NCBI GenBank assembly: GCA_964423845.1
Contig: CAYRGU010000130.1
Location: 1 to 41,915, forward strand
From: an uncultured Nitrospirota bacterium
GTDB lineage: Bacteria; Nitrospirota; Nitrospiria; SBBL01; SBBT01
Direction of reading: 5' to 3'
DNA length: 41,915 bases
Part shown: positions 24,422 to 40,081 of the stretch, piece by piece
Numbering within the stretch: position 1 is the first letter of the stretch
Layout: every line of letters starts with the position of its first letter
Program-made: the position numbers and the translations under genes
The notes under the pieces: generated by a model
The model's database searches: none
What the model saw: the letters and a program-made list of their open reading frames with translations, nothing else
Told to the model about the DNA's origin: nothing

Positions 24422-25601
24422 GGTGGGGCGTTTTGGCCGCTATGGTGGCCGGTATGTTCCCGAGACCCTCATGCCCGCCCTCTTTGCCTTGGAGTCGGCC
24501 TATCAATCGGCGAAGCGGGAGGCCCCGTTTCGGAAACGGCTGGCTTCTGAATTGACCCAGTATGTGGGACGTCCGACGCCGCTGTATTATGCCGAGCGGT
24601 TGTCAAAGCATCTGGGCCGCGCCAAAATTTACTTAAAACGTGAAGATCTCTGTCATACTGGCGCGCATAAAATTAACAACACGATAGGGCAGGCGCTTTT
24701 GGCCCTGAAAATGGGCAAGTCGCGGGTGATTGCCGAGACGGGTGCGGGACAGCATGGCGTGGCGGTGGCCACGGTGGCGGCCCGCTTCGGCCTTTCCTGT
24801 GAGATTTACATGGGGGTGGAGGATATGCGTCGCCAGTCCCTCAACGTGGCCCGGATGGTCTTTCTGGGGGCGAAGGTCACAGGCGTGACGGCCGGAAGCC
24901 AGACCCTGAAAGATGCGATTAACGAGGCGATGCGCGACTGGACCGCCCATGTTCGTGACACGCATTACATCCTCGGCTCGGTCCTGGGGCCGCATCCCTA
25001 TCCGATGATGATTCGGGACTTTCAGTCGGTGATTGGGCGTGAGGCGAAGCGTCAGATCGTTCAGCTTGAGGGGCGGCTCCCGGATCTTCTGGTGGCCTGT
25101 GTGGGGGGGGGAAGTAACGCGATGGGGTTATTTTATCCCTTTCTCTCCTCTCCGTCGGTTCGGATGGTGGGGGTGGAAGCGGGAGGTCTGGGTGTTGAGA
25201 CCGGACGACATGCGGCCCGGTTTTCCGGGGGTTCCGTAGGGGTCCTGCATGGAACCATGACGATGTTGCTTCAGGACCCCCATGGACAGATCCAGGCGAC
25301 CCATTCCATCTCTGCGGGACTTGATTATCCGGCGGTGGGACCAGAGCATAGCTTTTATCACGATAAAAAGCGGATTGATTACGTTGCGGTGACCGATGAC
25401 GCGGCCCTTGCGGGGTTTCATCTCCTCTCAAAGTTAGAGGGGATTATCCCGGCGCTGGAGTCTGCGCATGCGATTGCTTACCTGCTAAAGTCTCCTCACC
25501 TGTTGCGGAAGGGGAGTCAAATTATTGTCAATCTCTCCGGTCGGGGAGACAAGGATCTAAATCAGCTCATGGAGATGGCAGAAGCGAGGGGTGTCATGTA
25601 G
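24405..25601 (+). CDS. trpB: Tryptophan synthase beta chain
   Basis: [17 protein letters not shown], the PLP lysine block [24 protein letters not shown] and GGGSNAMG. I prefer the ATG at 24405 ([11 protein letters not shown]). The track ORF starts at 24372. Confidence 0.95.
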
Positions 25602-25656: not shown

Positions 25657-26937
25657 ATGAATCGTAAGCCGAATTCTAAAGATCAATCAGCAAGTCAACC
25701 AGCAAGTCAACCAGCCCCGCCGAAGAAAATTATTTCAACGCCAGAAAAGCAGGTCAGGCTTTTAAAGTCGATGGCGGAGATCGGGACCCTTTTAAATTCA
25801 ACATTGGATGAGCAGGAGGTGAGAAAACGGGCGGTGGAGGCGGCCACTCGTTTAACCGACACGGATGTCGGTTCGCTGCTTTTAATCGATCCGAAGACAA
25901 AAGAGCTTTATTTCGAGGTGGCCCTGGGTGAAAAGGGGGCGCGTATTCGTGAGGTGCGTCTCAAGCCGGGGGAGGGGATTGCCGGGATGGTGGCGGAGAC
26001 GGGCGAGGCCCAAATTGTTCACAATGTTCAGATTCATCCCAAGTTTTTTAAGTTTGCCGATGAGCGGAGCGGGTTTGTCACGCGCAACATGATCTGCGTG
26101 CCGGTGGAATATCGGGGTAAACGGACCGGGGTGATTCAGGTAATCAATAAAAGAAAAGGGAAGTTCAGCCAGGAAGATTTAAACAGCCTGAAGATGCTTT
26201 CTGATCATGTGGCGATCGCCATTGAGAATGCCCTGCTCTATAAAGAGCTCTCGGACACCTTCTTGAGCACGGCGGCCGCGCTGGGGGATGCCATTGAGGC
26301 GAAGGATGCCTATACGGCGGGACATACACGGCGCGTGATGGAATATAGTCTGGTTGTGGGACGGCGATTGGCGGTGGATAAAAATACCTTGGAAAACCTT
26401 AAACTGGCTGCGGTTCTGCACGATATCGGAAAAATTGGGATTGAGGATCGAATCCTTCAGAAGTGTGGGCGTCTGGATCCGGACGAATCGATGGTGATGC
26501 AGGGGCACACGGTGATTGGGGCCCGAATTGTGGATCATATTCCCCCGCTGAAAGAGATTATCCCAGGGATTCGGAATCATCATGAAAAATATAATGGCAC
26601 CGGCTATCCCGACCAACTCAAGGGGAAAGGGATCCCAACGATCGCGCGGATTATCTCGGTCTGCGATACCTTTGACGCCATGACGACGGATCGGCCTTAT
26701 CGAAAGGGGTTGACTCCGGGGATCGCGTTGAAGGAATTACGGAAATGTGCGAAGACCCAGTTTGATCCCAAAGTGGTGGAGGCCTTTATCGCCGCCTTCA
26801 TTGATGGGGATATCGAGCCAATCTTCTACCGGTATAAAATTCCCGTTCCGGTTGCCGTTTCCCCTGCGACGGTTTCAGCCAGCGCCGTCGCCCCCAGAGA
26901 AGTTTCCAAAAAGGCCCGCAAGAAGGCGATGCCGTGA
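25657..26937 (+). CDS. GAF domain + HD-GYP domain protein (predicted cyclic-di-nucleotide phosphodiesterase)
   Basis: 426 aa. The GAF-like block is GSLLLIDPKTKELYFEVALG...GIAGMVAETGE...RNMICVPV. The HD-GYP block is AGHTRRV...LHDIGKIGI...HHEKYNGTGYPDQLKG...CDTFDAMTTDRPYRK. The stop overlaps the trpA GTG (GTGA at 26934-26937). Confidence 0.88.
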   Translation: MNRKPNSKDQSASQPASQPAPPKKIISTPEKQVRLLKSMAEIGTLLNSTLDEQEVRKRAVEAATRLTDTDVGSLLLIDPKTKELYFEVALGEKGARIREVRLKPGEGIAGMVAETGEAQIVHNVQIHPKFFKFADERSGFVTRNMICVPVEYRGKRTGVIQVINKRKGKFSQEDLNSLKMLSDHVAIAIENALLYKELSDTFLSTAAALGDAIEAKDAYTAGHTRRVMEYSLVVGRRLAVDKNTLENLKLAAVLHDIGKIGIEDRILQKCGRLDPDESMVMQGHTVIGARIVDHIPPLKEIIPGIRNHHEKYNGTGYPDQLKGKGIPTIARIISVCDTFDAMTTDRPYRKGLTPGIALKELRKCAKTQFDPKVVEAFIAAFIDGDIEPIFYRYKIPVPVAVSPATVSASAVAPREVSKKARKKAMP

Positions 26938-27731
26938 GCCGAATCCCGGCCGTTTTCCATCGTCTTGCGCTGCGGAAAGAAAAGGCCCTGATTGCCTATC
27001 TGATGGCGGGAGATCCGACACTCTCTCAAACCGCTGACATGGTCCTTGCGATGGAGAAGGCAGGGGCCGACTTGATTGAGCTTGGCGTTCCATTTTCCGA
27101 TCCGGTGGCGGATGGCCCGGTGATCGCGCGGGCTGCCAGCCGTGCCCTGGCGCAAGGGGTTTCTCTGCAAGATGTCCTGGGGCTTGTGGCGCGGCTGCGC
27201 CGTCAAAGCCAGATCCCGCTGATTTTGATGACCTACGTGAATCCCGTTTATGCCGTGGGCTTGGTGCCATTTTTTCGCGAGGCGCAAGCGGTGGGTGTGG
27301 ATGGGATCATCATTCCGGATCTGCCCATTGAAGAGGCGTCGGAGTTTGTCGCGCTTTCCCGATGCCACGACATTGATCTTGTCTTTCTGGTAACCCCCAC
27401 CACGGAGGCATTACGGATTCAAAAAATTGTGAAGTCGGGATCGGGCTTTATCTACTACGTCTCGCTGACCGGTATTACCGGAGCCCCATTGATCGAAAAA
27501 AAAGGACTGCGCGGCCAAATCCGTAAAATTAAGTCAAAGACCGACTTGCCGGTGGCAGTTGGATTTGGCATCGCAACGCCGGATGAGGCGCGAGAGGTTG
27601 CGCGCGACGCGGAGGGGGTCATCGTGGGCAGCGCGCTGGTGAAGATCATCGAAACGGCGCAGGAAAACCCCGCGTTTGTTGAGGCCCTTACCGCAGCCGT
27701 CTCCTCATTTAAAAAAGCAATTTCCGCATAG
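26934..27731 (+). CDS. trpA: Tryptophan synthase alpha chain
   Basis: 265 aa with a GTG start. ALIAYLMAGDP, IELGVPFSDPVADGPVI and YYVSLTGITG motifs. Confidence 0.93.
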   Translation: MSRIPAVFHRLALRKEKALIAYLMAGDPTLSQTADMVLAMEKAGADLIELGVPFSDPVADGPVIARAASRALAQGVSLQDVLGLVARLRRQSQIPLILMTYVNPVYAVGLVPFFREAQAVGVDGIIIPDLPIEEASEFVALSRCHDIDLVFLVTPTTEALRIQKIVKSGSGFIYYVSLTGITGAPLIEKKGLRGQIRKIKSKTDLPVAVGFGIATPDEAREVARDAEGVIVGSALVKIIETAQENPAFVEALTAAVSSFKKAISA

Positions 27732-27832: not shown

Positions 27833-28576
27833 ATGGACAGAAGCAGGATAAGGGGAATGGGGGGGCTTGTTGTACTGGTTCTTTTCTTTGGCGGGTGTGG
27901 GGACGGCAATCTTTTTAAGAGCCTCGCCGAGAACGAGTCGCCCGAGTCTCTCAAAGAGGCGGCCTCGATCGCCTTAAATAATGGGGATTATTCGTTGGCC
28001 ATTTCCACGCTTCAGGGGCTCTGTGGCACGACTGCGAGTGCGTCCACCTGTGACAGCGCCACCAGCGCCGATCTTGCCTCCGCCTACATGGGGCGGGCCG
28101 GCATCAACGCGACGCTGATCAATAAGGTGGCGGAGTCTGCGAGTTCAACGACAATCAGTAGCTTTACGTCGTTTTCCTCGATTCTTCCCGCGCCCACGGC
28201 AGCCAATCAAGCGGATCTCCATGCCGCAGTTTCTCTCTTGTCGAATATTCCGAATCCGACGCCGGATCAGAGTCTCCAATTGGCGGTGACGGCCGCTTCT
28301 GATCTCGTTGTCACGCTGGGGGTGCTGACAAGCGGTTTTAATTCGGCGGGTGTGCCCACGACGCTTCCGACGGTCGCGGCACTCGTTCCCGTTCTTGACA
28401 CGGTCGTGAATGATTTGGCCCAGATTTCCGCCGGGGTTTCCGGGTCGGGCCTGGTGAGTAGTAGTCAAGTGAACACGATCAATCAGATTAGCGCGAGTCT
28501 TAACAGCCAGAGTGGTACTACAACCGATGCGATTACCGCTTCGGATCTCCTAAGCTATTTGAACAGCATTCGATAG
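27833..28576 (+). CDS. Putative lipoprotein, Ala/Ser/Thr-rich, unknown function
   Basis: 247 aa. The signal peptide with a lipobox-like LVLFFGGC is followed by low-complexity A/S/T-rich sequence. I recognise no catalytic motif. Confidence 0.6.
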   Translation: MDRSRIRGMGGLVVLVLFFGGCGDGNLFKSLAENESPESLKEAASIALNNGDYSLAISTLQGLCGTTASASTCDSATSADLASAYMGRAGINATLINKVAESASSTTISSFTSFSSILPAPTAANQADLHAAVSLLSNIPNPTPDQSLQLAVTAASDLVVTLGVLTSGFNSAGVPTTLPTVAALVPVLDTVVNDLAQISAGVSGSGLVSSSQVNTINQISASLNSQSGTTTDAITASDLLSYLNSIR

Positions 28577-28600
28577 ATTCTCAAAATACTTTCAAAGAGG

Positions 28601-29680
28601 GTGATGATGACCAAAAAAGGATGTGTTGGATTGATGGCCGGTATTTTGTTGCTCCTGTGGGGCCCCGATTGGAGTAGGGCCGCAGAGCTGGGGACTCTTT
28701 ATCGCGGGATTCGCCCTCTTGGGATGGGGGGGGCGTTTATGACCCTGTCGGATGACGACAATGCCCTCTTTTATAACCCGGCAGGTCTAAATCGCATTGA
28801 TGGTTTTGGAGCGGTGGCCCTGGCCAATCCACTTGTGGAGGCCTCCTCAAATACCCTTTCGCTTCTTCAGGATGTGCAGGACTTAAAAGGTGAGTCTACA
28901 GCACAGATTACAAGTTTTCTGACGACGAATATCGGAAAGCTGCAACATGTCCGAGTTGCGGTTTTCCCCAGCCTGACCACGCATAATTTTGGGATTGGGG
29001 TCTTGGGACAGGGGACGGCGGATATTCTTATTGAGAATCCCGCTTTCCCCAGCGTGGCGACCGATGTCAAGCTGGACGTTGGTGGCGTGATTGGTTTTGC
29101 GCATGACTTTATGGACGAGCGGCTCCAGGTGGGTGTCACGGGCAAGTTCGTCCAGCGGAAAGGTCAGATTCGAACCTTTACTGTCGCGGATATTGCCGCA
29201 ACGACGACCGATTTCTTTAAAGATAAAACAGCGGAGGATTGGGCGCTCGATATCGGCGCGCAATGGAATTCGCACCTTTTCTTAAGCCCGACCTTTGCGG
29301 TGGTGGTTCAGAATATTACGGACCTTGATTTCAGCGCGCAGGGCCTCGGAATTCTCCCACAGCAGATCAATATCGGCGCCGCGATCAATCCAAAGTTTTG
29401 GATTTTAGAGACGACTCTGGCGATAGAAATTGATGATGTGACGAAAGAGGTGGGAACCGATTCAGACCTCTATAAACGGACCCATCTGGGGGCGGAGGTT
29501 CGTTTTCCAAAAATTTTAACCCTGCGCGCGGGGGTGAACCAAGGGTATCTCACTGCGGGGTTAGATCTTGATTTCTGGCTTTTGAAGTTTGGGTATGCCA
29601 ATTATGCCGAGGAGCTCGGCACGTTTTCCGGCCAGTTGGTTGATCGCCGCCACGTCGCGCAAATCACCATCGGTTTCTGA
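28601..29680 (+). CDS. Outer-membrane beta-barrel protein (PorV/TraF_2-like N-terminal motif)
   Basis: 359 aa with signal peptide ...WSRAAE. It has the LGMGGAFMTLSDDDNALFYNPAGL motif, alternating hydrophobic beta-strand periodicity, and a C-terminal ...AQITIGF with a terminal Phe. It starts 24 nt after the lipoprotein gene. Confidence 0.65.
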   Translation: MMMTKKGCVGLMAGILLLLWGPDWSRAAELGTLYRGIRPLGMGGAFMTLSDDDNALFYNPAGLNRIDGFGAVALANPLVEASSNTLSLLQDVQDLKGESTAQITSFLTTNIGKLQHVRVAVFPSLTTHNFGIGVLGQGTADILIENPAFPSVATDVKLDVGGVIGFAHDFMDERLQVGVTGKFVQRKGQIRTFTVADIAATTTDFFKDKTAEDWALDIGAQWNSHLFLSPTFAVVVQNITDLDFSAQGLGILPQQINIGAAINPKFWILETTLAIEIDDVTKEVGTDSDLYKRTHLGAEVRFPKILTLRAGVNQGYLTAGLDLDFWLLKFGYANYAEELGTFSGQLVDRRHVAQITIGF

Positions 29681-29768: not shown

Positions 29769-30557
29769 TTAGAATTCAAAAGATTGGTTCCCATCTAAAA
29801 GTTTTGCCGCCTTGATCTCTTTGAGTTCATTTGCAATTTCTTGCAGATGAAAAGACTTGATGTGATAGGGATGGAAGGGGATTTCCGGATGGTTCAATTT
29901 TTTGAATTCCTGGCCGGCAAGCCGGGGTGTAAGATGGCCTGAATCACGAGCGAGTTTCTCGAGTCGGTTTGGAAACGAGGTTTCAATGAAGGCGGCTTTT
30001 AGATTGGGGTCGACTTGAGCCACCTTCCAGATTTGATCGGTCTTTCCGGTGTCGCCGCTGATGACAATAGAAGCGTGATCCTCTTTGAGAATAAAGCCGA
30101 TTGCCGGCACCGCGTGATTGACCCGAATGGCGGTGAACCTCATTTTTTCTAAAATGAACGCTTGATCCGCTTTGATGGTTTGATAACGAAAGATTCCATT
30201 CTCTTTCGTCGGCAGGCGGGTGAAATCGGGTGAGATCTGGTCGTTGAAGAAATGTTTTTTGAGCGGGTTGATAATCTCCTTGATGCTAAGAATCGTAATG
30301 GGGGAGTGAATCTTTCCAAACAGCGCCTCCGCGACGTACGGAAGGCTCTGGATATGGTCCAGATGGATATGGGTGAGCAGAATATATCGCAGTTTCATCA
30401 GGGCCGTGAGGGGGAGCGTCTCAAAGAGCGGTCCGGCATCGATGGCCACCGTCTCGTTAATCAGAAATGAGGCCCAGAGGGAGGAGAGGCTACAGGAGTG
30501 GGGGGCTTTTCCCTTTGGGTTTCCCCTGTCGGGTCCCCCCAGAACTTGAACTTTCAA
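29769..30557 (-). CDS. Metallo-beta-lactamase-fold hydrolase resembling class II 3',5'-cyclic-nucleotide phosphodiesterase
   Basis: 262 aa. LLTHIHLDHIQS matches the HxHLDH core of class II cAMP phosphodiesterases. Later VNHAVPAIG, SGDTG and SGHLTP blocks fit that family. It has a TTG start overlapping the cyclase TGA (TTGA at 30554-30557). Confidence 0.65.
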   Translation of the reverse strand: MKVQVLGGPDRGNPKGKAPHSCSLSSLWASFLINETVAIDAGPLFETLPLTALMKLRYILLTHIHLDHIQSLPYVAEALFGKIHSPITILSIKEIINPLKKHFFNDQISPDFTRLPTKENGIFRYQTIKADQAFILEKMRFTAIRVNHAVPAIGFILKEDHASIVISGDTGKTDQIWKVAQVDPNLKAAFIETSFPNRLEKLARDSGHLTPRLAGQEFKKLNHPEIPFHPYHIKSFHLQEIANELKEIKAAKLLDGNQSFEF

Positions 30558-32674
30558 GACAGATGCCCCTCCATTTTTTTAGAAACGGCGTGAACGGGAA
30601 CCATTTTATGGGCCCCGTTTGTTTTTTCTTCCTCGCGTGGAATGCTGATCACACTGTAGATGGCCACACTCTGATCCCGCCCTTTGACCTTCACCTCATC
30701 GAGTCTTTCCACGGTGACGCGGCCCAGTTTCCGTCTGTTGGGGGGCAGGAGAGGCGGGGCGCCGCCTGCGGAAGGCCCTTCGATGAGATCTTTCACCTGA
30801 TGATAGGTGTCTTCGGTAATAATCAGGGGAACCTCATATTTTCGGGTGAGTGACTCGACGCGCGCCGCCAGATTAACCGGATCGCCGATGACCGTATAGT
30901 CCATTTTCTTCCCTTCAGCGCCCATATTCCCCACGATCACCATTCCCGTGTTGATGCCCACGCCGATATCCAGGGGTTCCCGCTCTCGCGCCTTCCATTG
31001 CATCTGGAGCTCTCCCAGGCGCTTTCGCATGTCCAGGGCGCACCGGATGGCCCGCTCCGCATGGTCTTCCTGCGCCAGGGGCGCGCCCCAGAAAACCATG
31101 ATGGCATCCCCCACAAATTTGTCAAGGGTCCCCTCCCAGCGGAACACCACATGCGTCATGGTGCCAAGATACTCGTTGAGTTGTTCAACGACGACGGCCG
31201 GGGGATTCCGTTCACAAAAGGAGGTAAATCCACGGATGTCTGAAAAGAGAATCGTGACCTCTCGACGAATGCCCCCAAGCTTGGCCAACTCCGGATTTTT
31301 GATCATCTCTTCGACGATACGGGGGGAGACATAGCTTGAGAACATCGCGCGGATTTTTTTTGCCTTTTTCTCTTCGGCAAAGTATTGATAGACGCTGTAA
31401 CTCCCAAAGGTCCCGATAATGGAGAGGCCAGGGTAAAACATATAGACCCACAGCCCCATTTTAATGAAGAGAATGACCGTGAGACCGATGTGCGCCATCA
31501 ACAGGAGGGAGGCGAGCGCCATGCCACCAAACGCCTGAAGATGGGGGAGAGACCGCCATAAAATGAGGTTAAACAGGAGGATGACGGCAATGTCAATGGC
31601 TTTCATCCCCTCCGTCCGATAGAGGAACCGCTGCGAGAGGATCTGATCGATGATATTGGCATTTTTTTCCACCCCCTGCATGCTGTTGGAGAAGGGGGTA
31701 ATTTTCACGTCAGCGGTGGCCAGCGCACTCGCGCCGATTAAAACAACCTTTTCCTGAAAGAGGGTGGGGGAAATCCGTCCCTTCAGGAGATCCGTTGCAG
31801 AATAGGTGGGAAAGGTCCCCTCCCGGCCATGATAGTTGATCAACATCTGTCCCCACTCATCTGTGGGAATGAGGGTCTTTCCCAGGCGCACCCCATCCCC
31901 AAGACGGAGCTCCATTTCCATTTCATTTAACCCCAGGTAGATCCGCGCGGTTTGAATCGACATGGGGGGGTAGTAATTGTCCTGATATTTTATCCATAAA
32001 ATTTCCCGCCGGAGGACGCCGTCGCGATCGGGAAGAATGTAGACATGGCCGAGGGCCAATGCCTCTGTGGTGAACGGCTTTAAAGGGGGCAAGACGCCGA
32101 TGGCCTGGATCACGGCATCCCGCTGATTCATCCGTTTGATCCGGGCGTACGGGAAGTTATCCAGATAATCAGGCATCTCCCCGAGTAATCGCTTTATTTT
32201 TTCCTGATAACTTGCGGGGACGTCGAAGGCGACCGGAAGAACGACATTCCCCGCCTCACGAATCGCGATCTTCAGGGCCTCCTCTCCCGCTGAAATTTCT
32301 TCTGGGAGGGCTTCCTTTCCTGACGTCGTCTCTTTCTCGGAGAAGAGGATATCCATGGCAATGACCTTGGGCCGTCCGCTTGCCACCTGATTGAGAAGGC
32401 TCGCCATCTTCTCACGGGGCCAGGGCCAGCGCCCCAATTCCTGGACGCTTTTCTCGTCAATGGTGACAATGACAACCTTCCCGTCCGGCGTTGTTTGTCC
32501 CCTGACCCAGAACCGAAAATCAAGGGTTTTCTGTTCCCAGATTTCAAGAAAACCGGGGTCAATGACTGTGAGCAGGATGAAAAGCAGGGTGACGATTGGA
32601 ATTACCGCCTGGCCGACCTGTTTAATCTGCGCTTCGGACCAGCTTGTGAAGGAGGTGGGGATCAGTTTTTTCAT
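30554..32674 (-). CDS. CHASE2 sensor domain + class III adenylate/guanylate cyclase
   Basis: 706 aa. CHASE2 block: VIVTIDEKSVQELGRWPWPREKMA...AMDILFSE. Then about 3-4 TM segments. Cyclase core: VTILFSDIRGFTSF...GTLDKFVGDAIMVFWGAP...IGVGINTGMVIVGNMG...DYTVIGDPVNLAARVE. Confidence 0.9.
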   Translation of the reverse strand: MKKLIPTSFTSWSEAQIKQVGQAVIPIVTLLFILLTVIDPGFLEIWEQKTLDFRFWVRGQTTPDGKVVIVTIDEKSVQELGRWPWPREKMASLLNQVASGRPKVIAMDILFSEKETTSGKEALPEEISAGEEALKIAIREAGNVVLPVAFDVPASYQEKIKRLLGEMPDYLDNFPYARIKRMNQRDAVIQAIGVLPPLKPFTTEALALGHVYILPDRDGVLRREILWIKYQDNYYPPMSIQTARIYLGLNEMEMELRLGDGVRLGKTLIPTDEWGQMLINYHGREGTFPTYSATDLLKGRISPTLFQEKVVLIGASALATADVKITPFSNSMQGVEKNANIIDQILSQRFLYRTEGMKAIDIAVILLFNLILWRSLPHLQAFGGMALASLLLMAHIGLTVILFIKMGLWVYMFYPGLSIIGTFGSYSVYQYFAEEKKAKKIRAMFSSYVSPRIVEEMIKNPELAKLGGIRREVTILFSDIRGFTSFCERNPPAVVVEQLNEYLGTMTHVVFRWEGTLDKFVGDAIMVFWGAPLAQEDHAERAIRCALDMRKRLGELQMQWKAREREPLDIGVGINTGMVIVGNMGAEGKKMDYTVIGDPVNLAARVESLTRKYEVPLIITEDTYHQVKDLIEGPSAGGAPPLLPPNRRKLGRVTVERLDEVKVKGRDQSVAIYSVISIPREEEKTNGAHKMVPVHAVSKKMEGHLS

Positions 32675-32715
32675 CTCTGTCCGGGGATCAGGGATTGATG
32701 AAACATCGGGCCTCG

Positions 32716-33834
32716 CTATGGAATGGGAACCACAATCTGCGTGCGTGTTTTATCGGGACGCGGTTCTTGCTGGAGGGGGGGGATCACGGGAATTGCGGTC
32801 TCCATCGGAGGGAGCCCTTCCGTCTGAAACTCGCTCAACACGGGGTATTCAAGGGCCGGTGCCTGGGAGACGTTCCCACTGGTTTCTGTCCTGGCCTCAC
32901 CCGGCGCGGCAGCTTGAGATGCCGGTTCCTGGGCCTGGGAGACGTTCCCACTGGTTTCTGTCATGGCCTCGCCCGACACGGCAGATTGCGGGGCCGGTTC
33001 CTGGGAGACGTTACCACTGGTTTCTGTCCTGTCCTCGCCCGACATGGCAGCTTGCGGGGCTGGTTTACTGACCCCGCTATCAGGGGGCGCTGTTTTGGCC
33101 CCAGATTTTACCTCGGACGCCGGAGTCGGTGGCGTGTCTATCCGAGGCGTCTCGGTGGGGGTCCTCCCCGCAGAGACGGTTGTGGATTCAACACGCTCCG
33201 CCACTTCCGTGGCGGCCATCAGTTCCGCACGAAGTTCCGCTGGCGCCACTGCCGGCGGCGAAGGGGGAATCTCGCTCCCAACGAGGGTATAGGTATTCGG
33301 TGTCAGGAGGACCGATTCTCCGGGCGTTTCATGGCTGCTTTTGACTTCCACGGACCCTTCCAGGCCCAAAACACCTGTGGCGGGCACGCCATTGACCTCG
33401 GTATTCCAGACAATAAAATAGGTGCCTCGCGCTGCGGCCACTGCTGTGGGGGTGTGAATTTCAAAGCGGGAGTTGCTTCCCGTGAAAAGTTTGCCCACAA
33501 GAACGCGAACGACGCCATTGCTCATTTCAATGAGGGTGCTTCGGCGGTTATTTTCAGGGTCATAAATGCTCTCCGTGATTTTAATCCGCGACCTTTCGCC
33601 CAAGCTCAAGATACTGTCATCTTCAAAGAGAAGTTTCAGTTTGGATTGAACGCCCGTCTTATAGGTATCCAAGAATAAGACGGCGTCCCCCCCTTTTGCG
33701 GTGATTATTTCGCTCTGATTGTCGTGGATGACATGGCCTTCGCGTTGCACGGCCGCGACCGATCCAATCAGCGTTTCGCACCATCCTATCGTGGGGAGGA
33801 GAAGGGCCATCAATAAAGTTAGGGGGATTTTCAT
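32716..33834 (-). CDS. Secreted FecR-domain protein with a Pro/Thr/Ser/Glu-rich repetitive C-terminal tail
   Basis: 372 aa with signal peptide MKIPLTLLMALLLPTIGW. The FecR-like beta-rich region is GSVAAVQREGHVI...GDAVLFLDTYKTGVQSKLKLLFEDDSILSLGERSRIKI. The tail contains three 22-24-aa repeats. Confidence 0.8.
   Translation of the reverse strand: MKIPLTLLMALLLPTIGWCETLIGSVAAVQREGHVIHDNQSEIITAKGGDAVLFLDTYKTGVQSKLKLLFEDDSILSLGERSRIKITESIYDPENNRRSTLIEMSNGVVRVLVGKLFTGSNSRFEIHTPTAVAAARGTYFIVWNTEVNGVPATGVLGLEGSVEVKSSHETPGESVLLTPNTYTLVGSEIPPSPPAVAPAELRAELMAATEVAERVESTTVSAGRTPTETPRIDTPPTPASEVKSGAKTAPPDSGVSKPAPQAAMSGEDRTETSGNVSQEPAPQSAVSGEAMTETSGNVSQAQEPASQAAAPGEARTETSGNVSQAPALEYPVLSEFQTEGLPPMETAIPVIPPLQQEPRPDKTRTQIVVPIP
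32855..33065 (-). repeat. Three tandem 66-72-bp coding repeats in the FecR-domain gene
   Basis: CTGGGAGACGTT(C/A)CCACTGGTTTCTGTC recurs at 32863, 32935 and 33001 (periods of 72 and 66 nt). It encodes ...(E/A)xTETSGNVSQ(E/A)(P/Q)... three times. Confidence 0.8.
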
Positions 33835-35367
33835 TTAAAACCTCCTCGACAGGTTAACGCCATAGACGCTACGTTGATACGAATAGGGGGAGATATTGGA
33901 CGGGTTGTCCGTTCGAACCATCTGCAACGAGAGGGTCACCTCTTTAGAGTACGCATAGACCAGGTTCACCTGAACGGTCGTGGTGTCGTCACGCCGCTTC
34001 TCTTTCGGTGTGGCGGTGGAAAGCGTGCTGGGATGTCGATATCGCTTCCCTTGATAATCGGCATCCAGGTCCACTCTTATCCACGGGAGCTGATAGCCGC
34101 CGCCCACCCCAAGGCGGTGCCCCTGATAGTCTAATTGATTGTCGTTCGCGGCATCAAGATCAAAAGTATATTTGAGTCGGAGGGCCCCCTTGCGCTTTGC
34201 GAAATAAAGGCTTTTCGCCCCGCTTAAGGCCTGGTTGACGCCGTCTCGATCGGAGGTGGCCGAGGCGTTCTCCGCGAAGTCTTTCTGCTGGAATTGATAG
34301 GAAAACAGTCTTCCCATGGCAGGTTGTAAGAGGGCGATCCGAACCGTCTGGTTGTTGAGATACGCCTTGCCATCCAGGGTGATGAAGTCGAAGCGATAGT
34401 CCCCTCGCAGTTGGGTTTGGTTTTTCTCATAAACCAGGTAAAGAAAAGGTTGATGGCTGGTGGTGTTAAATCTGTCCAGCGTCTGATGCAGGCTCTGATA
34501 AAGCGTGTAGCCCCCTCCCCCTCCCCAGGGGAGCGGTTTGCGGTAGGGGATGAGGCTGTTAAAAAAGAGGACGATTCGACCATCCTGCTTCTTGCTGGGC
34601 GGCGTTGAAAGGGGAAGATCCGTAGGCTCCAGAATGACGTTGTCGTCGTATTGATAACCGATACTCAAACCCATCTGCCAGTCGGAGATGCTCTCCATCC
34701 GCGCGATCCGGGTGAGATACTCTTTTGAGGATCGTCCGATCTCTGAATCGGGGGCCTGTTCCAGGACTGCCAGAAATTCATCCTTGGCCTCCGCGATGAT
34801 TTTTTGCTGGAAAAAGGCGATCCCGGCATGATACCGCGAGACTGGAATTAAGTCGGGGTGATCCAGCGTCGCCATCGCGGCGGCTCGAAGGAAGCGGGGC
34901 GCGGCGCGCTCCGGCTGGCCCATCTCTTGATAAACCTTCCCCTGGTAGAAATAGATCAGGGGGTTCTTCGCGCCGGCGCGCTCTCCCTCGGCGAGCATGT
35001 CGAGGGCGTCCTGATATTTTTTTTGTTGATGATAGACGATACCCAGATCAAGGTATGCGTCAAGGGGGAGGGGAGAGAGCGTCAGCGCAAAGCGTAAATC
35101 CTCCTCCGCCTCCAGGAATTTCCCTTGTTTTCCCTCCACCACGCCAAGGAGATGAATGGCTCGGGCATCCTGGGGATGGGCGTTGAGGGCGGCCCGGAAT
35201 GATAATTCTGCTTCGGCATATCGCTTTTGATTTACGAGGGCGATGCCGCGGGTCATTTTAAGATCATATTCCTCGTGGTCCAGAATTTGCGCAAAGACAC
35301 AAGGCGTTTCAAACAGCATGAAAGCAAAGAGAAGCATTAAAAGGGGGAGGTGGACGGGCGGTTTCAC
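33835..35367 (-). CDS. TPR-repeat + C-terminal beta-barrel outer-membrane protein (Slam/DUF560-like or BcsC/PgaA-like architecture)
   Basis: The N-terminal half has TPR-like repeats (AEAELSFRAALNAHPQDARAIHLLGVV..., YQDALDMLAEG..., YFYQGKVYQEMGQPERA). The C-terminal about 280 aa have alternating beta-strand periodicity and end in ...YGVNLSRRF. I prefer the GTG at 35367 (VKPPVHLPLLMLLFAFMLFETPCVFAQ signal peptide), which overlaps the glk TGA as GTGA. The track ORF extends to 35460. Confidence 0.7.
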   Translation of the reverse strand: MKPPVHLPLLMLLFAFMLFETPCVFAQILDHEEYDLKMTRGIALVNQKRYAEAELSFRAALNAHPQDARAIHLLGVVEGKQGKFLEAEEDLRFALTLSPLPLDAYLDLGIVYHQQKKYQDALDMLAEGERAGAKNPLIYFYQGKVYQEMGQPERAAPRFLRAAAMATLDHPDLIPVSRYHAGIAFFQQKIIAEAKDEFLAVLEQAPDSEIGRSSKEYLTRIARMESISDWQMGLSIGYQYDDNVILEPTDLPLSTPPSKKQDGRIVLFFNSLIPYRKPLPWGGGGGYTLYQSLHQTLDRFNTTSHQPFLYLVYEKNQTQLRGDYRFDFITLDGKAYLNNQTVRIALLQPAMGRLFSYQFQQKDFAENASATSDRDGVNQALSGAKSLYFAKRKGALRLKYTFDLDAANDNQLDYQGHRLGVGGGYQLPWIRVDLDADYQGKRYRHPSTLSTATPKEKRRDDTTTVQVNLVYAYSKEVTLSLQMVRTDNPSNISPYSYQRSVYGVNLSRRF

Positions 35368-36353
35368 GCGGTCTCTACAGTATCCATGGCGTAGTGGACG
35401 GCGCCGATTAAAGGCGTCTCGGGGGCGAGAATGACGTGAACCGGAATGCGATTTAACCACTCCTGAAACCGCCCCTTGCTTAAAAAGGCGTTCATGAAAT
35501 GCCCCGCCTGTAGCACGGAGAGGATCTTGGGGGCAATCCCTCCGCCGACAAAGATCCCTCCGGTTGCCCCGACCTTGAGGGCAAAATTACCGGCCTCTGC
35601 GCCATAAATGGAAGCGAACAGCCGAATTGATTCCTGGCACAGGGGGTGGCCTTCCTCGCGCGCGACTGCGGTAATGCCCTCCGCAGGGTCGCCGAGGGCC
35701 AGACGCTCCCCCAGCCAGGGCGGCTCGTCCGCGAAACCGGTCTCTTTGAGAAACCGGTAGAGATTAACCAACCCCGCCCCGGAAAGAATCCGTTCGATGC
35801 TGACATGTCCCCACAGAGGGCTTAGAAACTGGAGTAATTTTATTTCCTGATCCGACCGGGGCGCAAAATCGGTATGTCCCCCTTCCGTGGCGATCGGGAG
35901 ATAGCGGTTTCCCGTCCAGCAGAGAAACGCTTCTCCGAGGCCGGTTCCTGCCGCAAGCGTGCCGATGGGGCCATTGGGGTCCGGGAGCCCTGAATTTAGT
36001 GTGACCCTTTGCCGACCGGTCAGAAAGCGTGTGCCATAGGCGATCGCCTGCACATCGTTGAGAAGGAGGACACGAGGAATGTGAAGCAGGGTTTCAAGAG
36101 CGGCCGCGTCAATGTCCCAGGAGAGGTTTGTCATCTGGCACCTCTGATTTTGAATGGGACCTGCGACGGCGAATACGCCGGTTGTCACAGAAGGCGCACC
36201 TTCCAGAAATTGCGTCAGAATCGCCTCGAAGTTTACGAACGATTGATTCAGGTAAACCGCCTCCTTAACCGGAGTCAGCGTTCCAGAACCCGTTTTTGAA
36301 AAAAGAGCGAGCGCGGTTTTGGTCCCGCCGATATCGCCTGTCAGGAGGATCAT
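35364..36353 (-). CDS. glk: Glucokinase
   Basis: MILLTGDIGGTKTALALF (ROK/Glk N-terminal ATP motif), GLGEAFL and GGIFVGGGIAPKIL. The ATG at 36353 overlaps the pgl TGA (ATGA). The track ORF extends to 36434. Confidence 0.88.
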   Translation of the reverse strand: MILLTGDIGGTKTALALFSKTGSGTLTPVKEAVYLNQSFVNFEAILTQFLEGAPSVTTGVFAVAGPIQNQRCQMTNLSWDIDAAALETLLHIPRVLLLNDVQAIAYGTRFLTGRQRVTLNSGLPDPNGPIGTLAAGTGLGEAFLCWTGNRYLPIATEGGHTDFAPRSDQEIKLLQFLSPLWGHVSIERILSGAGLVNLYRFLKETGFADEPPWLGERLALGDPAEGITAVAREEGHPLCQESIRLFASIYGAEAGNFALKVGATGGIFVGGGIAPKILSVLQAGHFMNAFLSKGRFQEWLNRIPVHVILAPETPLIGAVHYAMDTVETA

Positions 36354-37222
36354 CCCCGATGCCTTAAGTCGTGTGCCGCAGCTCGGTCGACAAGCCAGAG
36401 GCACTGTCCGTGTTGCGGGCGAATCTGTTGGCAAGGGAGGGCTGTGGCGGGGGGCGCGCCTTCAAAAACCTGGGACAGGGCCGGGGCCTTGTCTTGTCCG
36501 ACCACCAGGAAAATAATGAAGCGGGCCTGATTGATGATGCAGGGGGTTAGGGTCAGGCGGTTTCCATGACGGGAGGTCACCGGTACGACCCAGCGATGGG
36601 TCTCCTGCCACGTGGCCGCGCCCCCCGCAGGGGTCGCACCCCTCGTAGGGGCCGCAGCGCTCGCAGCTCCCGCTTCCGGAAAGAGCGAGGCGGTATGTCC
36701 ATCCGCCCCCATGCCAAGGAGCACCAGATCAAACGCGGGCGGGGTTGCGCCCCTGGCAGGGGTTGCGCCACCCGCCGGGGTCGCACCCCTCGTAGGGGTC
36801 GTTGGCCCCTCGACGGAAGAGGGCGTAAAATGCCGCTGAATGTCCGCTTCATAGCGGGACGCTGCGCCGTCTAAATCGGGGTCCTCCGCTTCCATCCGGT
36901 GAATGAAGTGGGCGGGGATGCCAAGCGGTGTCAGCAGGCATTCTTTTGCCATCTGGTAGTTGCTTTCCGGATGATCCGGCGGGACGGCGCGTTCGTCGCC
37001 AAAAAAGAAGTGAGTTTTCAGCCAGTATTCTTCGTTGGGATCTCTGGCCAGCAGGGAATAGAGCCCTTTTGGGGTGGCCCCGCCCGCCAGGACAAAACGG
37101 AACGTCTCCCGCTCACGAAGCGCCTCCCTCGCGATCCGCGTCATTTGTCGGGCCGCTTCCCTAAAGACCTGATCGGGATGATTTAGGATATGGGGCGGGT
37201 TGATGGTTAGAGGGCCCTCCAT
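36350..37222 (-). CDS. pgl: 6-phosphogluconolactonase, carrying two in-frame repeat insertions
   Basis: 290 aa. FRFVLAGGATPKGLY, FFGDERAVPPDHPESNY and FDLVLLGMGADGHTASLFP are Pgl/NagB-family signatures. PTRGATPAGGATPARGATPP and APTRGATPAGGAA flank the GMGADGH block. Confidence 0.85.
   Translation of the reverse strand: MEGPLTINPPHILNHPDQVFREAARQMTRIAREALRERETFRFVLAGGATPKGLYSLLARDPNEEYWLKTHFFFGDERAVPPDHPESNYQMAKECLLTPLGIPAHFIHRMEAEDPDLDGAASRYEADIQRHFTPSSVEGPTTPTRGATPAGGATPARGATPPAFDLVLLGMGADGHTASLFPEAGAASAAAPTRGATPAGGAATWQETHRWVVPVTSRHGNRLTLTPCIINQARFIIFLVVGQDKAPALSQVFEGAPPATALPCQQIRPQHGQCLWLVDRAAAHDLRHRG
36615..36655 (-). repeat. 18-nt palindromic repeat, about 2.3 copies (block A), in frame inside pgl
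   Basis: The plus strand reads ...GGGGTCGCACCCCTCGTAGGGGCCGC. The reverse complement, GCGGCCCCTACGAGGGGTGCGACCCC, is the same unit as in trpE. Confidence 0.8.
36741..36802 (-). repeat. 18-nt palindromic repeat, about 3.4 copies (block B), in frame inside pgl
   Basis: Plus-strand units: GGGGTTGCGCCCCTGGCA / GGGGTTGCGCCACCCGCC / GGGGTCGCACCCCTCGTA / GGGGTCGT. Confidence 0.8.
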
Positions 37223-38736
37223 TTACGACCCGTGGCCTCGATTAACCGATCGGCCTCAACGGGGCCTGGACTTCCCGCAGTATATTCAGGCAGCCATCGG
37301 GTTCCGTGTGTCGCCCACCCTTGCAGAATGCCGGTAATCCATTTCCATGAGGCCTCCACTTCGTCCCGGCGCATAAACAGGGTGGAATCGCCGTTCATCA
37401 CATCGAGGAGGAGTCGCTCATAGGCCTCTGGGGAGGCGGCTGTATTGCCATATTGATAGGCCATCTCCACGGGCTGCATCATCACCTTGGACCCCGTTTT
37501 CTTGGAGATCATGCTTAGAGAAAATCCTTCTTCCGGCTGGATGCGGAGTGTTAAGACGTTGGGAGATAACGGGACAGCGCGGTTGGCGTTAAAGAGGACC
37601 GACGGGACCTCCTTGAACTGGACAGAGATCTCGGTGGCCCGTTTGGAAAGTCGCTTGCCGGTGCGCAGATAAAAGGGAACGCCAGCCCATCGCCAGTTGT
37701 CGATAAAAACCTGCAAGGCGACAAAGGTTTCCGTCGTGGAGTCTGGTTTCACCCCACTTTCACGGCGATAGCCTGGCACCTCGATGCCATTGACGATTCC
37801 CGGGATGTACTGCGCCCGGACAATCGATTCGTTCGCGGCATCAAAGAGGAGGGGTCGTAGCGATTGGAGGACGGCGAGCTTGGCATCCCGTACCACATTC
37901 GGTTCGAGCGACCAGGGCGGCTCCATGGCGACCAGACAGAGCAGTTGAAGAATATGGTTCTGGACGATATCCCGCAGGGCCCCGGCCTCCTCGTAATAAC
38001 TGGACCGCGTTTCAATCCCGGCATCCTCGCTGACGGCGATTTGAACATGATCAATATATTTGTGGTTCCAGAGCGGCTCAAAAATACCATTCGCGAATCG
38101 AAGAACCAGGAGATTTTGCACCGTCTCTTTCCCCAGATAATGATCAATCCGGAATATCTGGGATTCGTCGAAGGCCTGCCCTAACAGGCGGTTGATCTCC
38201 CGCGCGGTGGCCAGATCTCTCCCAATCGGTTTTTCCACGATAATTCGCGTGAGGGGATAATCCCCCGATGGGGGATGAATCAGCCCGGCCTTCCGCAGCC
38301 CTTCGGAGACTGCGGCGATCGAGGTCGGTGGAATGGCCAGATAGAAAATGCGATGTCCGGGAAGATGCAGGTCGGCTTCTATTTTCTCAACGCGGATTTT
38401 GAGGTCTCGATAGGTTTCAGCCGAGTTGACTTCTCCTGAAAGATAGAAGAAACGGGATTGAATCTGCTCCCACTGTTTTGGATCAAGCGCCTGGCGGGAG
38501 TGGGCAACGATTCCAGCATGCGCCTGTTGACGGAATCCCTCCTCTCCGAGGGGTTTTCTTCCAATACCCACAATGGCAAAATTTTTGGCGAGGGAGTCGT
38601 CCAGGAAAAGATTATAGACTGCGGGGATTAGTTTGCGATGGGCAAGATCCCCGGATCCCCCAAAAATAATCAATGTACAGGCCGGCGGCAGGGCGGGCCT
38701 GGCCTCTCCCTCTTCGGCCTTTTTTTCTTCTGTCAT
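37207..38736 (-). CDS. zwf: Glucose-6-phosphate 1-dehydrogenase
   Basis: 509 aa. IIFGGSGDLAHRKLIPA, the RIDHYLGKE active-site signature, and IAVSEDAGIE. Confidence 0.95.
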   Translation of the reverse strand: MTEEKKAEEGEARPALPPACTLIIFGGSGDLAHRKLIPAVYNLFLDDSLAKNFAIVGIGRKPLGEEGFRQQAHAGIVAHSRQALDPKQWEQIQSRFFYLSGEVNSAETYRDLKIRVEKIEADLHLPGHRIFYLAIPPTSIAAVSEGLRKAGLIHPPSGDYPLTRIIVEKPIGRDLATAREINRLLGQAFDESQIFRIDHYLGKETVQNLLVLRFANGIFEPLWNHKYIDHVQIAVSEDAGIETRSSYYEEAGALRDIVQNHILQLLCLVAMEPPWSLEPNVVRDAKLAVLQSLRPLLFDAANESIVRAQYIPGIVNGIEVPGYRRESGVKPDSTTETFVALQVFIDNWRWAGVPFYLRTGKRLSKRATEISVQFKEVPSVLFNANRAVPLSPNVLTLRIQPEEGFSLSMISKKTGSKVMMQPVEMAYQYGNTAASPEAYERLLLDVMNGDSTLFMRRDEVEASWKWITGILQGWATHGTRWLPEYTAGSPGPVEADRLIEATGRKWRAL

Positions 38737-39635
38737 GGTTTTTCCCCGGCGGGAAGGTGTCCGCCAAAGGCGTTGCGAAGCGCGGTAAGCAGTCGTCCGG
38801 AATAGGTGTTCTGTTGGCGGGAGCGAAAACGGGCGAAGAGCGCGGCGGTCAGGGCTGGGGTGGGAATATTCTGACGCAGGGCCTCCTCAATCATCCAGCG
38901 CCCTTCCCCAGAGTCCTCCACGGTATCAGAAAGTTGGGTGAGATGGGGGGTGCGGGAAAGGACCCCGGCCGTAAGCTCCAGAAGCCATGAACGGACCACG
39001 CTCCCCTGCATCCAGAGTTTCGAGATCCGGGCCAGGTCGAGGGCATACCCGCTTTGGGCCATCAGCTCAAAGCCTTCGGCATATCCCTGCATGAGGCTGT
39101 ATTCGATGCCATTATGAACCATCTTGACGTAATGGCCGGCACCCGGGCCCCCGACGTGGGCCCATCCATTTTCCGGCGCCAGCGTGGTGAAAATGGGCGT
39201 AAGAGACGAAACGGGATCAGGGGCCCCACCCACCATCAGACAGTACCCATTTTTTAACCCCCACACCCCGCCGCTTGTGCCCACATCAATGTAATGGATT
39301 CCCTGGCCGGCGAGATGTCTGGCCCGGAGAACATCCTCTTGAAAATGGGTATTTCCCCCATCAATCAAGAGGTCTCCTGCGCCAAGCAGCGTGGCGAGTG
39401 TATCCAGGGTGGATTGTGTGGGCGCGCCCGCAGGCACCATGGTCCAGATGGCTCGCGGGGGAGCAAGCGACGCGGCCATCTCTTTTAATGAAGCGGTGCC
39501 GATCCCTCCCGACCGAGTGGCCTCTTGAATGAGGGCGCTGTTCTGATCGTATACTAAAACAGTATGTCCGCCCTGGATCAGACGTTTGACCATGTTCATT
39601 CCCATTTTGCCCAGGCCGACAAACCCGATCTTCAT
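38733..39635 (-). CDS. gnd: 6-phosphogluconate dehydrogenase, decarboxylating (short about 300-aa Gnd/YqeC-like form)
   Basis: MKIGFVGLGKMGMNMVKRL (Rossmann fold), DGGNTHF, GTSGGVWG and KMVHNGIEY. The ATG at 39635 overlaps the rpiB TGA (ATGA). The track ORF extends to 39800 with an Arg-rich improbable leader. Confidence 0.9.
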   Translation of the reverse strand: MKIGFVGLGKMGMNMVKRLIQGGHTVLVYDQNSALIQEATRSGGIGTASLKEMAASLAPPRAIWTMVPAGAPTQSTLDTLATLLGAGDLLIDGGNTHFQEDVLRARHLAGQGIHYIDVGTSGGVWGLKNGYCLMVGGAPDPVSSLTPIFTTLAPENGWAHVGGPGAGHYVKMVHNGIEYSLMQGYAEGFELMAQSGYALDLARISKLWMQGSVVRSWLLELTAGVLSRTPHLTQLSDTVEDSGEGRWMIEEALRQNIPTPALTAALFARFRSRQQNTYSGRLLTALRNAFGGHLPAGEKP

Positions 39636-40081
39636 GTGCGCGCCGCTTCGAGACGGGTGACTTTGGCCAAACGCCGCAGGTGCCTCTCTTCCGCTGTGAA
39701 TTTTGCGAGGAGGAAGGCTTTGACGATTTCCTCGGCGTGCGCCGGGCCGATCACCCGTGCGCCCAGGGCCAAAACGTTGACGTCGTCGTGCTCCACGCAT
39801 TGGTGCGCCGAGTAGATATCATGGCAGACCCCCGCACGAATCCCCTTCATCTTGTTGGCGGCCACTGCGGCCCCCACGCCGCTTCCACACAGGAGGATGG
39901 CCCGTTCTACACCCCACTTTTGAATGGCCTTGCCGGCGGCCTCTGCGTAATCCGGGTAATCAACCGGCTCGGTGGAGTGGGTGCCAAGATCGACCACTTC
40001 ATGGCCAAGCTTCTGGATGACGGCCATGACGGTTTCTTTCAGGGGATAACCGCCATGATCGGCGGCGACAGCAACTTTCAT
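39632..40081 (-). CDS. rpiB: Ribose-5-phosphate isomerase B
   Basis: MKVAVAADHGGYPLK..., LLCGSGVGAAVAANK and RAGVCHD motifs. The ATG at 40081 overlaps the pgi TGA (ATGA). An alternative ATG at 40096 adds 5 residues. Confidence 0.9.
   Translation of the reverse strand: MKVAVAADHGGYPLKETVMAVIQKLGHEVVDLGTHSTEPVDYPDYAEAAGKAIQKWGVERAILLCGSGVGAAVAANKMKGIRAGVCHDIYSAHQCVEHDDVNVLALGARVIGPAHAEEIVKAFLLAKFTAEERHLRRLAKVTRLEAART

Follow-up and report, generated by a model that had tools for sequence, protein, structure and literature searches.

A Nitrospirota gene cluster combining a Slam-like TPR-barrel protein and its FecR-domain partner with a CHASE2 cyclase and a phosphodiesterase: a candidate envelope-to-cAMP signalling system

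Background

The sensor domain CHASE2 is widespread in bacteria and, to our knowledge, has had no ligand established since it was defined. A gene cluster associating a CHASE2 adenylate cyclase with a phosphodiesterase, a FecR-domain protein and a tetratricopeptide repeat (TPR) protein has been described in Campylobacterota, and its authors proposed a shared signalling pathway and a horizontal spread to other phyla (PMC9239204, mBio 2022). All four component types are also found in the DNA analyzed here, a stretch of 41,915 nucleotides from an uncultured Nitrospirota bacterium (assembly GCA_964423845.1, contig CAYRGU010000130.1, positions 1 to 41,915, hereafter the window). Since the four-component cluster was already reported, the window represents a Nitrospirota member of a known and mechanistically unsolved cluster. 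It differs from the Campylobacterota representatives by its host phylum, by its gene order and by its FecR-domain protein, in which a disordered tail with repeats stands in place of the Big_9 and TbpB_B_D domains. Moreover, the TPR protein was not recognised as a Slam-like barrel in the Campylobacterota study.

Two other described systems place CHASE2 sensors in a comparable context. In Sinorhizobium meliloti, the outer-membrane barrel NsrA is required for the response of the CHASE2 cyclases CyaD1, CyaD2 and CyaK to a plant protein signal (PMC13001267, PMC7529298). The NsrA-CyaD1/CyaD2/CyaK-Clr pathway shares with the window an outer-membrane barrel, CHASE2 cyclases and FecR and TPR proteins, although NsrA, compared here by its description, is far larger than the window barrel protein, with a barrel portion at residues 600-1200 (PMC7529298). 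In Burkholderiales and Pseudomonas aeruginosa, a LysM-FecR protein is encoded in one operon with a CHASE2 histidine kinase (PMC5192318). A secreted FecR-domain protein is thus encoded beside a CHASE2 sensor, as in the window, but the output of this operon is a two-component system, the partner has a LysM domain, and neither a TPR-barrel gene nor a phosphodiesterase gene is present.

The TPR protein of the window resembles two groups of outer-membrane proteins. Slam proteins of the type 11 secretion system (T11SS; DUF560, the SlipAM family of Pfam) have a periplasmic TPR domain, a 14-strand C-terminal barrel and an adjacent partner (PMC8406197, PMC12282271), as in the window. However, the sequence similarity is marginal and the window partner lacks a C-terminal 8-strand cargo barrel (TbpB_B_D or lipoprotein C). 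TbpB_B_D, which defines T11SS cargo (PMC12282271), is found on the partners of two of the loci surveyed here (L019 and L052; loci of other genomes are referred to by such L numbers). No mention of FecR or CHASE2 was found in the T11SS literature that we searched. The exporters BcsC, PelB and PgaA also combine TPRs with a C-terminal barrel and are the best structural matches of the window protein, but the structural matches have low template modelling scores (TM-scores) and low identity, and the window contains no synthase genes. A relay leading from an outer-membrane protein through a FecR-domain protein to the inner membrane is known from the FecA-FecR-FecI type of cell-surface signalling, which relies on a TonB-dependent transducer, an anti-sigma factor and an extracytoplasmic function (ECF) sigma factor. 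The relay logic is similar to that considered here, but the window FecR protein has neither an anti-sigma N-terminal domain nor a transmembrane segment, its only N-terminal feature of this kind being a cleavable signal peptide, and no TonB-dependent transducer or ECF sigma factor was found in the cluster, in its flanks (25.6-39.8 kb) or among the other large window open reading frames (ORFs) scanned.

In the searchable literature we found neither the recognition of the “TPR protein” as a Slam-like 14-strand barrel, nor the association of this barrel with the FecR gene rather than with the cyclase gene, nor the occurrence of a T11SS cargo domain on some FecR partners and of a C-terminal strand motif on others. 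These points are incremental and computational. Once the TPR protein is regarded as a Slam-like barrel devoted to FecR, a vague cluster resolves into testable steps, namely a barrel-dependent localisation, a binding of FecR to CHASE2 and a cyclic AMP (cAMP) read-out, and offers a route to the long-missing partner of CHASE2. The value of the window itself is modest: it extends a known cluster to Nitrospirota and shows its modularity.

Results and discussion

Organisation of the cluster

The cluster is formed by four co-directional ORFs on the minus strand of the window, encoding successively a TPR-barrel protein (33835..35367, 510 aa), a FecR-domain protein (32716..33834, 372 aa), a CHASE2 cyclase (30554..32674, 706 aa) and a class-II/metallo-beta-lactamase (MBL) phosphodiesterase (29769..30557, 262 aa). 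The successive gaps are 0, 41 and -4 nt, the last one corresponding to a 4-nt overlap of the phosphodiesterase start with the cyclase stop. The sequence-only reading followed up here had proposed this layout and these four identities; the coordinates and spacing are confirmed from the ORFs, and the identities all proved correct in view of the Pfam domains and of the AlphaFold2 fold of the barrel. We give roughly even credence to the interpretation that the four genes constitute an envelope-to-cAMP signalling cluster of two modules, linked to each other through FecR and CHASE2.

The TPR-barrel protein

The barrel gene starts with the GTG at 35367, which overlaps the stop codon of the upstream glk gene as GTGA, and the N-terminus read from this start (MKPPVHLPLLMLLFAFMLFETPCVFA/Q) aligns with the signal peptides of homologues. 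The signal peptide is followed by about six TPRs (residues ~22-225) and by a beta-barrel of 14 strands (residues ~231-510), with RRF as the last residues of the protein. The AlphaFold2 model, based on ten homologues, has a mean predicted local distance difference test score (pLDDT) of 88 and displays 12 helices, then 14 strands, the last ending in Phe. Over its full length the protein matches many TPR families of Pfam with 55-60 bits, while BBP2_2 and SlipAM stay below their Pfam cut-offs (19.2 bits versus 22 for SlipAM), as does TPR_Slam (16.9 bits, cut-off 35.2). The barrel domain taken alone (residues 226-510; 33838..34692, minus strand), in which alignments reveal conserved YDDNV, RxD and SNI..Y.Y.R motifs, scores 23.8 bits against both SlipAM and BBP2_2, above the respective cut-offs of 22 and 23.7.

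An exhaustive phmmer search retrieved 702 representative clusters of this barrel family at E<=1e-3, and most of the members listed have a length of 420-540 aa and a C-terminal barrel. Among 80 members scanned, SlipAM was detected in 29 (E<0.01), BBP2_2 in 26 and TPR_Slam in 45. The comparison of the model with the PDB by Foldseek gave BcsC as first match (E 4e-13), followed by PelBC and by the 14-strand barrels OmpG and CymA, the matches of the BcsC/PelB/PgaA type having TM-scores of 0.34-0.49 and 9-10% identity; a search of the PDB with the sequence profile of the barrel gave no match. Taken together, the profile matches and the predicted fold indicate that the barrel protein is probably a marginal relative of the Slam/type-11 secretins, with which it has its architecture in common.

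Members of the barrel family are also encountered with much larger partners. In L050 (5628-9869) and L065 (3203-7588), they are paired with secreted proteins of 1413 and 1461 aa, respectively, which have an N-terminal FecR domain, and in L085 (3792-7889) with a 1365-aa beta-helix/NosD-like protein encoded beside CsgG-like genes. These pairings suggest that the family may work with large partners of several kinds.

The FecR-domain protein

The FecR-domain protein is composed of a signal peptide, a FecR domain at residues 56-162 (Pfam, 1.4e-14) and a disordered tail. The signal peptide has no lipobox, and homologues have AFA-type cleavage sites opposite it in the alignment. The possibility that the protein is a lipoprotein was considered and rejected, Cys19 being preceded by IGW and aligning with signal-peptidase-I sites of the AFA type. 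The tail comprises 187 residues rich in P, A, E, S and T and includes a tandem repeat (32853..33065, minus strand) of 3.1 copies of a 66-nt unit (22 aa, TETSGNVSQ...), detected by Tandem Repeats Finder with 81% of matches and a score of 281. Weak NCBIfam matches to the Leptospira adhesins/lipoproteins Lsa33 and LipL45 were also obtained.

At its extreme C-terminus, the alignment reveals a strand motif, TRTQIVVPIP (32719..32748, minus strand), which conforms to a motif T-x-x-[IVL]-x-V-x-[FI]-(P) also present in barrel-linked FecR proteins of other phyla. It is aligned opposite TTLTVEVQFP in L090, TKVNIGVKF in L005, TKVDIGVKF in L010, GGNVVVEF in L001 and GQLGIVFDR in L003, and the linkers separating it from the FecR domain are not conserved. 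This conserved strand would be the end of the protein handled by the barrel. The Campylobacterota partners end differently, in a TbpB_B_D domain (32.1 bits in L019 and 27.5 in L052, cut-off 26), preceded by FecR and Big_9 in L019 and by FecR in L052. The TPR-barrel gene of L019 ends where the gene of this cargo-like FecR protein starts, an arrangement that supports a role of the barrel in handling its FecR partner. Furthermore, in L014 and L016, FecR+TPR fusion proteins are encoded directly upstream of the cyclase gene with a stop/start overlap, a Rosetta-stone arrangement hinting at a cooperation of the FecR and TPR modules.

A distinct arrangement is present in seven Bacteroidota/Ignavibacteriota loci (L031, L035, L039, L044, L047, L051 and L069), which contain in this order the genes of a short FecR protein, a protein of ~813 aa and a CHASE2 cyclase (for example at 6695-12094 in L035). 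A hairpin-like motif (...L.I.F.D..G..K...I.Y) is conserved at the C-terminus of the short FecR protein. The protein of ~813 aa, without Pfam match, may be an analogous outer-membrane partner.

The cyclase and the phosphodiesterase

The cyclase matches the CHASE2 (3.7e-62, 210.6 bits) and Guanylate_cyc (5.7e-25, 88.4 bits) families of Pfam. A transmembrane segment (~17-47) is followed by the periplasmic CHASE2 domain (~48-357), a transmembrane bundle (~358-415) and a class IIIb catalytic domain. The nearest solved relatives of the cyclase are Cya2 (2w01, 6fht) and P. aeruginosa CyaB (3r5g). Class III cyclases depend on two metal-binding Asp, on a Lys/Thr pair interacting with the substrate and on an Asn and an Arg stabilising the transition state. 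All these residues are present in the window cyclase (D479, K519, D523, T594, N601 and R605) and are invariant in 13 homologues, their roles being assigned from the knowledge of class III enzymes and from the alignment to Cya2 and its Lys variant. We take the K519/T594 pair to mark the protein as a class IIIb adenylate cyclase, and this pair indicates ATP as the probable substrate.

The phosphodiesterase matches PDEase_II (1.8e-13, 50.8 bits, cut-off 23.7) as well as Lactamase_B_2. It has the MBL fold, with an HIHLDH motif (HxHLDH) beginning at H63, and its best solved relative is yeast Pde1 (4ojv). No N-terminal hydrophobic segment and no signal peptide were found in this protein, which is thus predicted to be a cytoplasmic, class-II-like cyclic-nucleotide phosphodiesterase of the MBL fold.

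Association of the four genes across phyla

The neighbourhood of CHASE2 cyclases was surveyed in 80 loci from many phyla, with one genome per species (1.25 Mb), corresponding to the best-scoring 80 of at least 597 matches and annotated with home-made hidden Markov models (HMMs) iterated on these loci from the window proteins. Many contigs are truncated and all fractions are lower bounds. The control consisted of 74 unrelated loci (0.63 Mb), obtained from a barrel-anchored metagenome scan with TPR-derived patterns in which 2 of 76 loci (L090 and L091) proved to be true barrel relatives.

In 30 of the 80 loci, the cyclase gene has a FecR gene at a distance of 3.5 kb or less (300 nt or less in 15 of them), against one occurrence in the control. 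Class-II-like phosphodiesterase genes are present in the cyclase flanks of 13 loci (11 within 3.5 kb and 10 within 300 nt) and barrel-family genes near the cyclase in nine loci, all nine also having FecR; neither was observed in the control. FecR, phosphodiesterase and barrel genes are hence strongly enriched beside CHASE2 cyclases, beyond chance. The frequent vicinity of FecR and CHASE2 genes, which the sequence-only reading had put forward, is borne out by these counts and by the operons of CHASE2 histidine kinases (PMC5192318). As FecR genes occur beside both 30/80 CHASE2 cyclases and CHASE2 kinases, we regard the FecR protein as the most promising candidate for a partner of CHASE2 in general.

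The four genes also occur together outside the window, in three loci (L006, L009 and L022), but across the sample they form two separable pairs rather than one conserved unit. The first pair is made of the barrel and FecR genes, which directly adjoin each other in 15 of the 17 barrel loci, and in 12 of these 15 they are on the same strand, barrel first, with a gap of 52 nt at most. These barrel loci span Nitrospirota, Geobacterales, Syntrophorhabdus, Gammaproteobacteria, Campylobacterota and others. The two without adjacent FecR gene are L085, where the 1365-aa beta-helix protein takes its place, and L086, whose contig stops 390 nt past the barrel gene. The second pair is made of the cyclase and the phosphodiesterase, orthologues of which directly follow the cyclase in 10/80 loci and in L087-L089. 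The window order barrel-FecR-cyclase is found in a Geobacteraceae locus (L005) and in a Pelobacteraceae locus (L010), followed in the latter by a longer MBL protein, and in an Arcobacteraceae locus (L019) the cyclase, TPR-barrel and FecR genes are consecutive, the barrel matching the HMM of the window family. The cluster is therefore modular, with a barrel-FecR pair and a cyclase-phosphodiesterase pair joined via the frequent FecR/CHASE2 association.

Several other genes were noticed in the surveyed loci. Among the cyclase loci (L004-L083), a Peptidase_M48 gene is located just downstream of the cyclase in 18 and MscS channels with a cyclic-nucleotide-binding (cNMP-binding) domain occur in 10. 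Cyclase loci of the Comamonadaceae type contain FHA and PP2C genes and, upstream, a second large protein matching the HMM of the full-length CHASE2 cyclase.

A possible signalling mechanism and its alternatives

In the two-module signalling interpretation, the first module would associate an outer-membrane TPR-barrel protein exported by Sec with its dedicated partner, a soluble FecR-domain protein also exported by Sec. The barrel would either export the C-terminal end of this partner or anchor it at the outer membrane, this end corresponding to the disordered linker of ~185 residues and the short conserved terminal beta-strand. In the second module, the CHASE2 receptor of the inner membrane would produce cAMP through its class IIIb (Lys/Thr) domain and the cytoplasmic class-II/MBL phosphodiesterase would degrade it. 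The FecR domain, located either in the periplasm or at the surface, would be the extracytoplasmic partner of the CHASE2 domain, as a co-sensor or as a ligand, and would link the modules by physical contact. Information would then flow inwards, cAMP synthesis reporting a condition at or beyond the outer membrane as the putative signal and the phosphodiesterase resetting cAMP to give a transient response. The pairing of FecR proteins with CHASE2 histidine kinases as well as with cyclases implies that the element shared by these associations is the sensor domain and not the output domain, and having the CHASE2 sensor as its constant partner favours an input role for FecR.

Two claims of the sequence-only reading belong to this mechanism and have kept part of their ground. 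The presentation or export of the FecR protein by the barrel gained comparative support from the adjacency in 15/17 loci, from the marginal SlipAM similarity and from the TbpB_B_D domains of the Campylobacterota partners. The trans-envelope relay has an experimental precedent in NsrA, the outer-membrane barrel on which CHASE2 cyclases of S. meliloti depend for their activation, and is weakened by the FecR protein SMc02177 of this species, which is dispensable for perception (PMC5498481).

Several other observations weigh against the signalling interpretation. A FecR domain exported to the surface would be out of reach of a CHASE2 domain located in the periplasm, the SlipAM match of the barrel is marginal both for the full protein (19.2 bits) and for the isolated domain (23.8 bits), and Pfam detected no TbpB_B_D cargo domain in the window FecR protein. 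An AlphaFold2 model of the barrel and FecR proteins fused in one chain, in which the FecR part has a pLDDT <50, says nothing either way. Barrel-FecR pairs also exist without a cyclase in their flanks (L001, L003, L084, L090 and L091). Lastly, neither a barrel gene nor a FecR gene is found in the vicinity of the cyclases closest to that of the window (62-65% identity). In L088 and L089 (62% identity), the order gnd-zwf-pgl-deoC-glk, cyclase and phosphodiesterase, followed by convergent PorV-like and lipoprotein genes and by trpA-trpB, reproduces the neighbourhood of the window minus barrel and FecR. L008 displays glk-cyclase-phosphodiesterase at the matching chromosomal site, also without barrel or FecR, and a Manganitrophaceae locus (L087, 65% identity) a cNMP-binding protein, the cyclase and the phosphodiesterase on a short contig where no glk was called. 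The lack of both genes at this site in relatives means that the cyclase does not need an adjacent barrel-FecR pair.

Among the cyclase-free pairs, L001 (2-1069) and L090 (2853-3405) have beta-propeller genes alongside, lactonase/YncE-like in the former and coding for a delta-60-repeat-like lipoprotein in the latter, while L003 (1-1041) has a cut, unannotated 346-aa gene at the equivalent upstream position.

The cyclase-free pairs are in line with an alternative in which the barrel and the FecR protein are an output, that is, a T11SS-like secretin plus its cargo, the latter being a surface or secreted effector or an adhesin. Its place beside the cAMP genes would then come from a control by cAMP or from a common physiological theme, and not from an input to the sensor. 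In S. meliloti, SMc02177 (FecR) and SMb20495 (TPR) are precisely outputs of this kind, induced by cAMP-Clr and needed for the downstream phenotype, but dispensable for signal perception (PMC5498481). The Campylobacterota partners resemble ordinary T11SS cargo with Ig/cadherin-like stalks, and the window FecR protein weakly resembles Lsa33 and LipL45, two surface adhesins of Leptospira, which points in the same direction. An output role does not readily account for the FecR genes found beside CHASE2 histidine kinases, which make no cAMP (PMC5192318) and designate the sensor domain as the partner, nor for the FecR+TPR fusions encoded immediately upstream of a cyclase with overlapping stop and start. 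The window pair itself is co-directional with the cyclase gene and upstream of it, with gaps of 0 and 41 nt. We consider this alternative as rather doubtful.

A more specific version of the signalling interpretation may be proposed. The Slam/T11SS-like barrel would hold or thread the FecR C-terminus, the linker would let the FecR domain reach CHASE2, and the state of this tether between the outer and inner membranes would gate cAMP synthesis. This logic is comparable to that of an RcsF-like envelope sensor. The tether is unlikely in our estimation; if true, it would provide the first general protein partner for CHASE2 and a signalling role for type-11-like secretins.

The absence of the pair at exactly this position in the syntenic relatives could also mean that the barrel and FecR genes are a mobile pair inserted between glk and a cyclase-phosphodiesterase pair to which they are unrelated, with no functional coupling. 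The metabolic genes gnd-zwf-pgl-glk are packed with the cluster as tightly as its own genes are with each other, therefore tight spacing alone proves little. However, the combination recurs with varied gene orders in unrelated phyla (L005, L006, L009, L010, L019, L022, L050 and L065) and in the published Campylobacterota cluster (PMC9239204), and the nine barrel genes near cyclases are all accompanied by FecR while the control loci are nearly FecR-free, which makes a mere coincidence quite improbable. Least likely of all, and to us barely credible, is that the barrel protein serves another locus, either as a generic porin or by exporting exopolysaccharides in the manner of BcsC, PelB, PgaA or EpsL. 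The sequence-only reading had itself raised this possibility, to which the BcsC and PelBC top matches of Foldseek and the weak NCBIfam EpsL (27 bits versus a cut-off of 275) and BBP2_2 matches would lend themselves. It is at odds with the 14 strands of the barrel, with the lack of genes for polysaccharide synthases or exporters in the scanned ORFs of the window and with the FecR-domain gene that almost always adjoins this barrel family (15/17 loci).

Neighbouring genes

A GAF + HD-GYP (HD_5) gene identified with Pfam (25657..26937, plus strand) is a possible accessory of the cluster. It sits between trpB (24372-25601) and trpA (26934-27731), whereas these two genes overlap in the syntenic relative L088, with no GAF-HD_5 gene between them. 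Such genes adjoin CHASE2 cyclases in about 8 of the 80 loci, for example directly after the cyclase in L072, and the GAF-HD_5 protein may be a candidate cyclic-nucleotide reader linking cAMP to cyclic di-GMP turnover.

Convergent to the phosphodiesterase gene, two ORFs of the plus strand (27833-29680) code for a lipoprotein-like protein of 247 aa, without Pfam match, and for a PorV/PorQ-like outer-membrane protein of 359 aa, with an NCBIfam PorV_fam match of 42 bits, below the cut-off. Both were examined as members of the system and rejected, as they are kept only in L088/L089 and not near other cyclases.

On the other side of the cluster, the genes gnd-zwf-pgl-glk are located upstream on the same strand. 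Their stops and starts overlap and they run into the cluster (35364-39800, minus strand). Given the tight packing of these four genes with the cluster, all eight may be co-transcribed; a promoter and terminator scan gave no operon-defining signal above the shuffled expectation. The order glk-cyclase-phosphodiesterase is kept in three relatives, among them L088 (2743-10908) and L008 (5809-9800), and this conservation suggests a lineage-specific link of the cAMP system to sugar or glycogen catabolism.

The 6-phosphogluconolactonase gene of the window contains four copies of a GC-rich unit, at 36618-36672 and 36747-36801. Each copy contains a short palindrome (CCCCTCGTAGGGG) and, read in frame, gives a peptide of the PTRGATPAGGATP type, and the protein has 290 aa in the window versus 260 aa in L088. 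A small palindromic repeat element seems to have been inserted here into the coding region.

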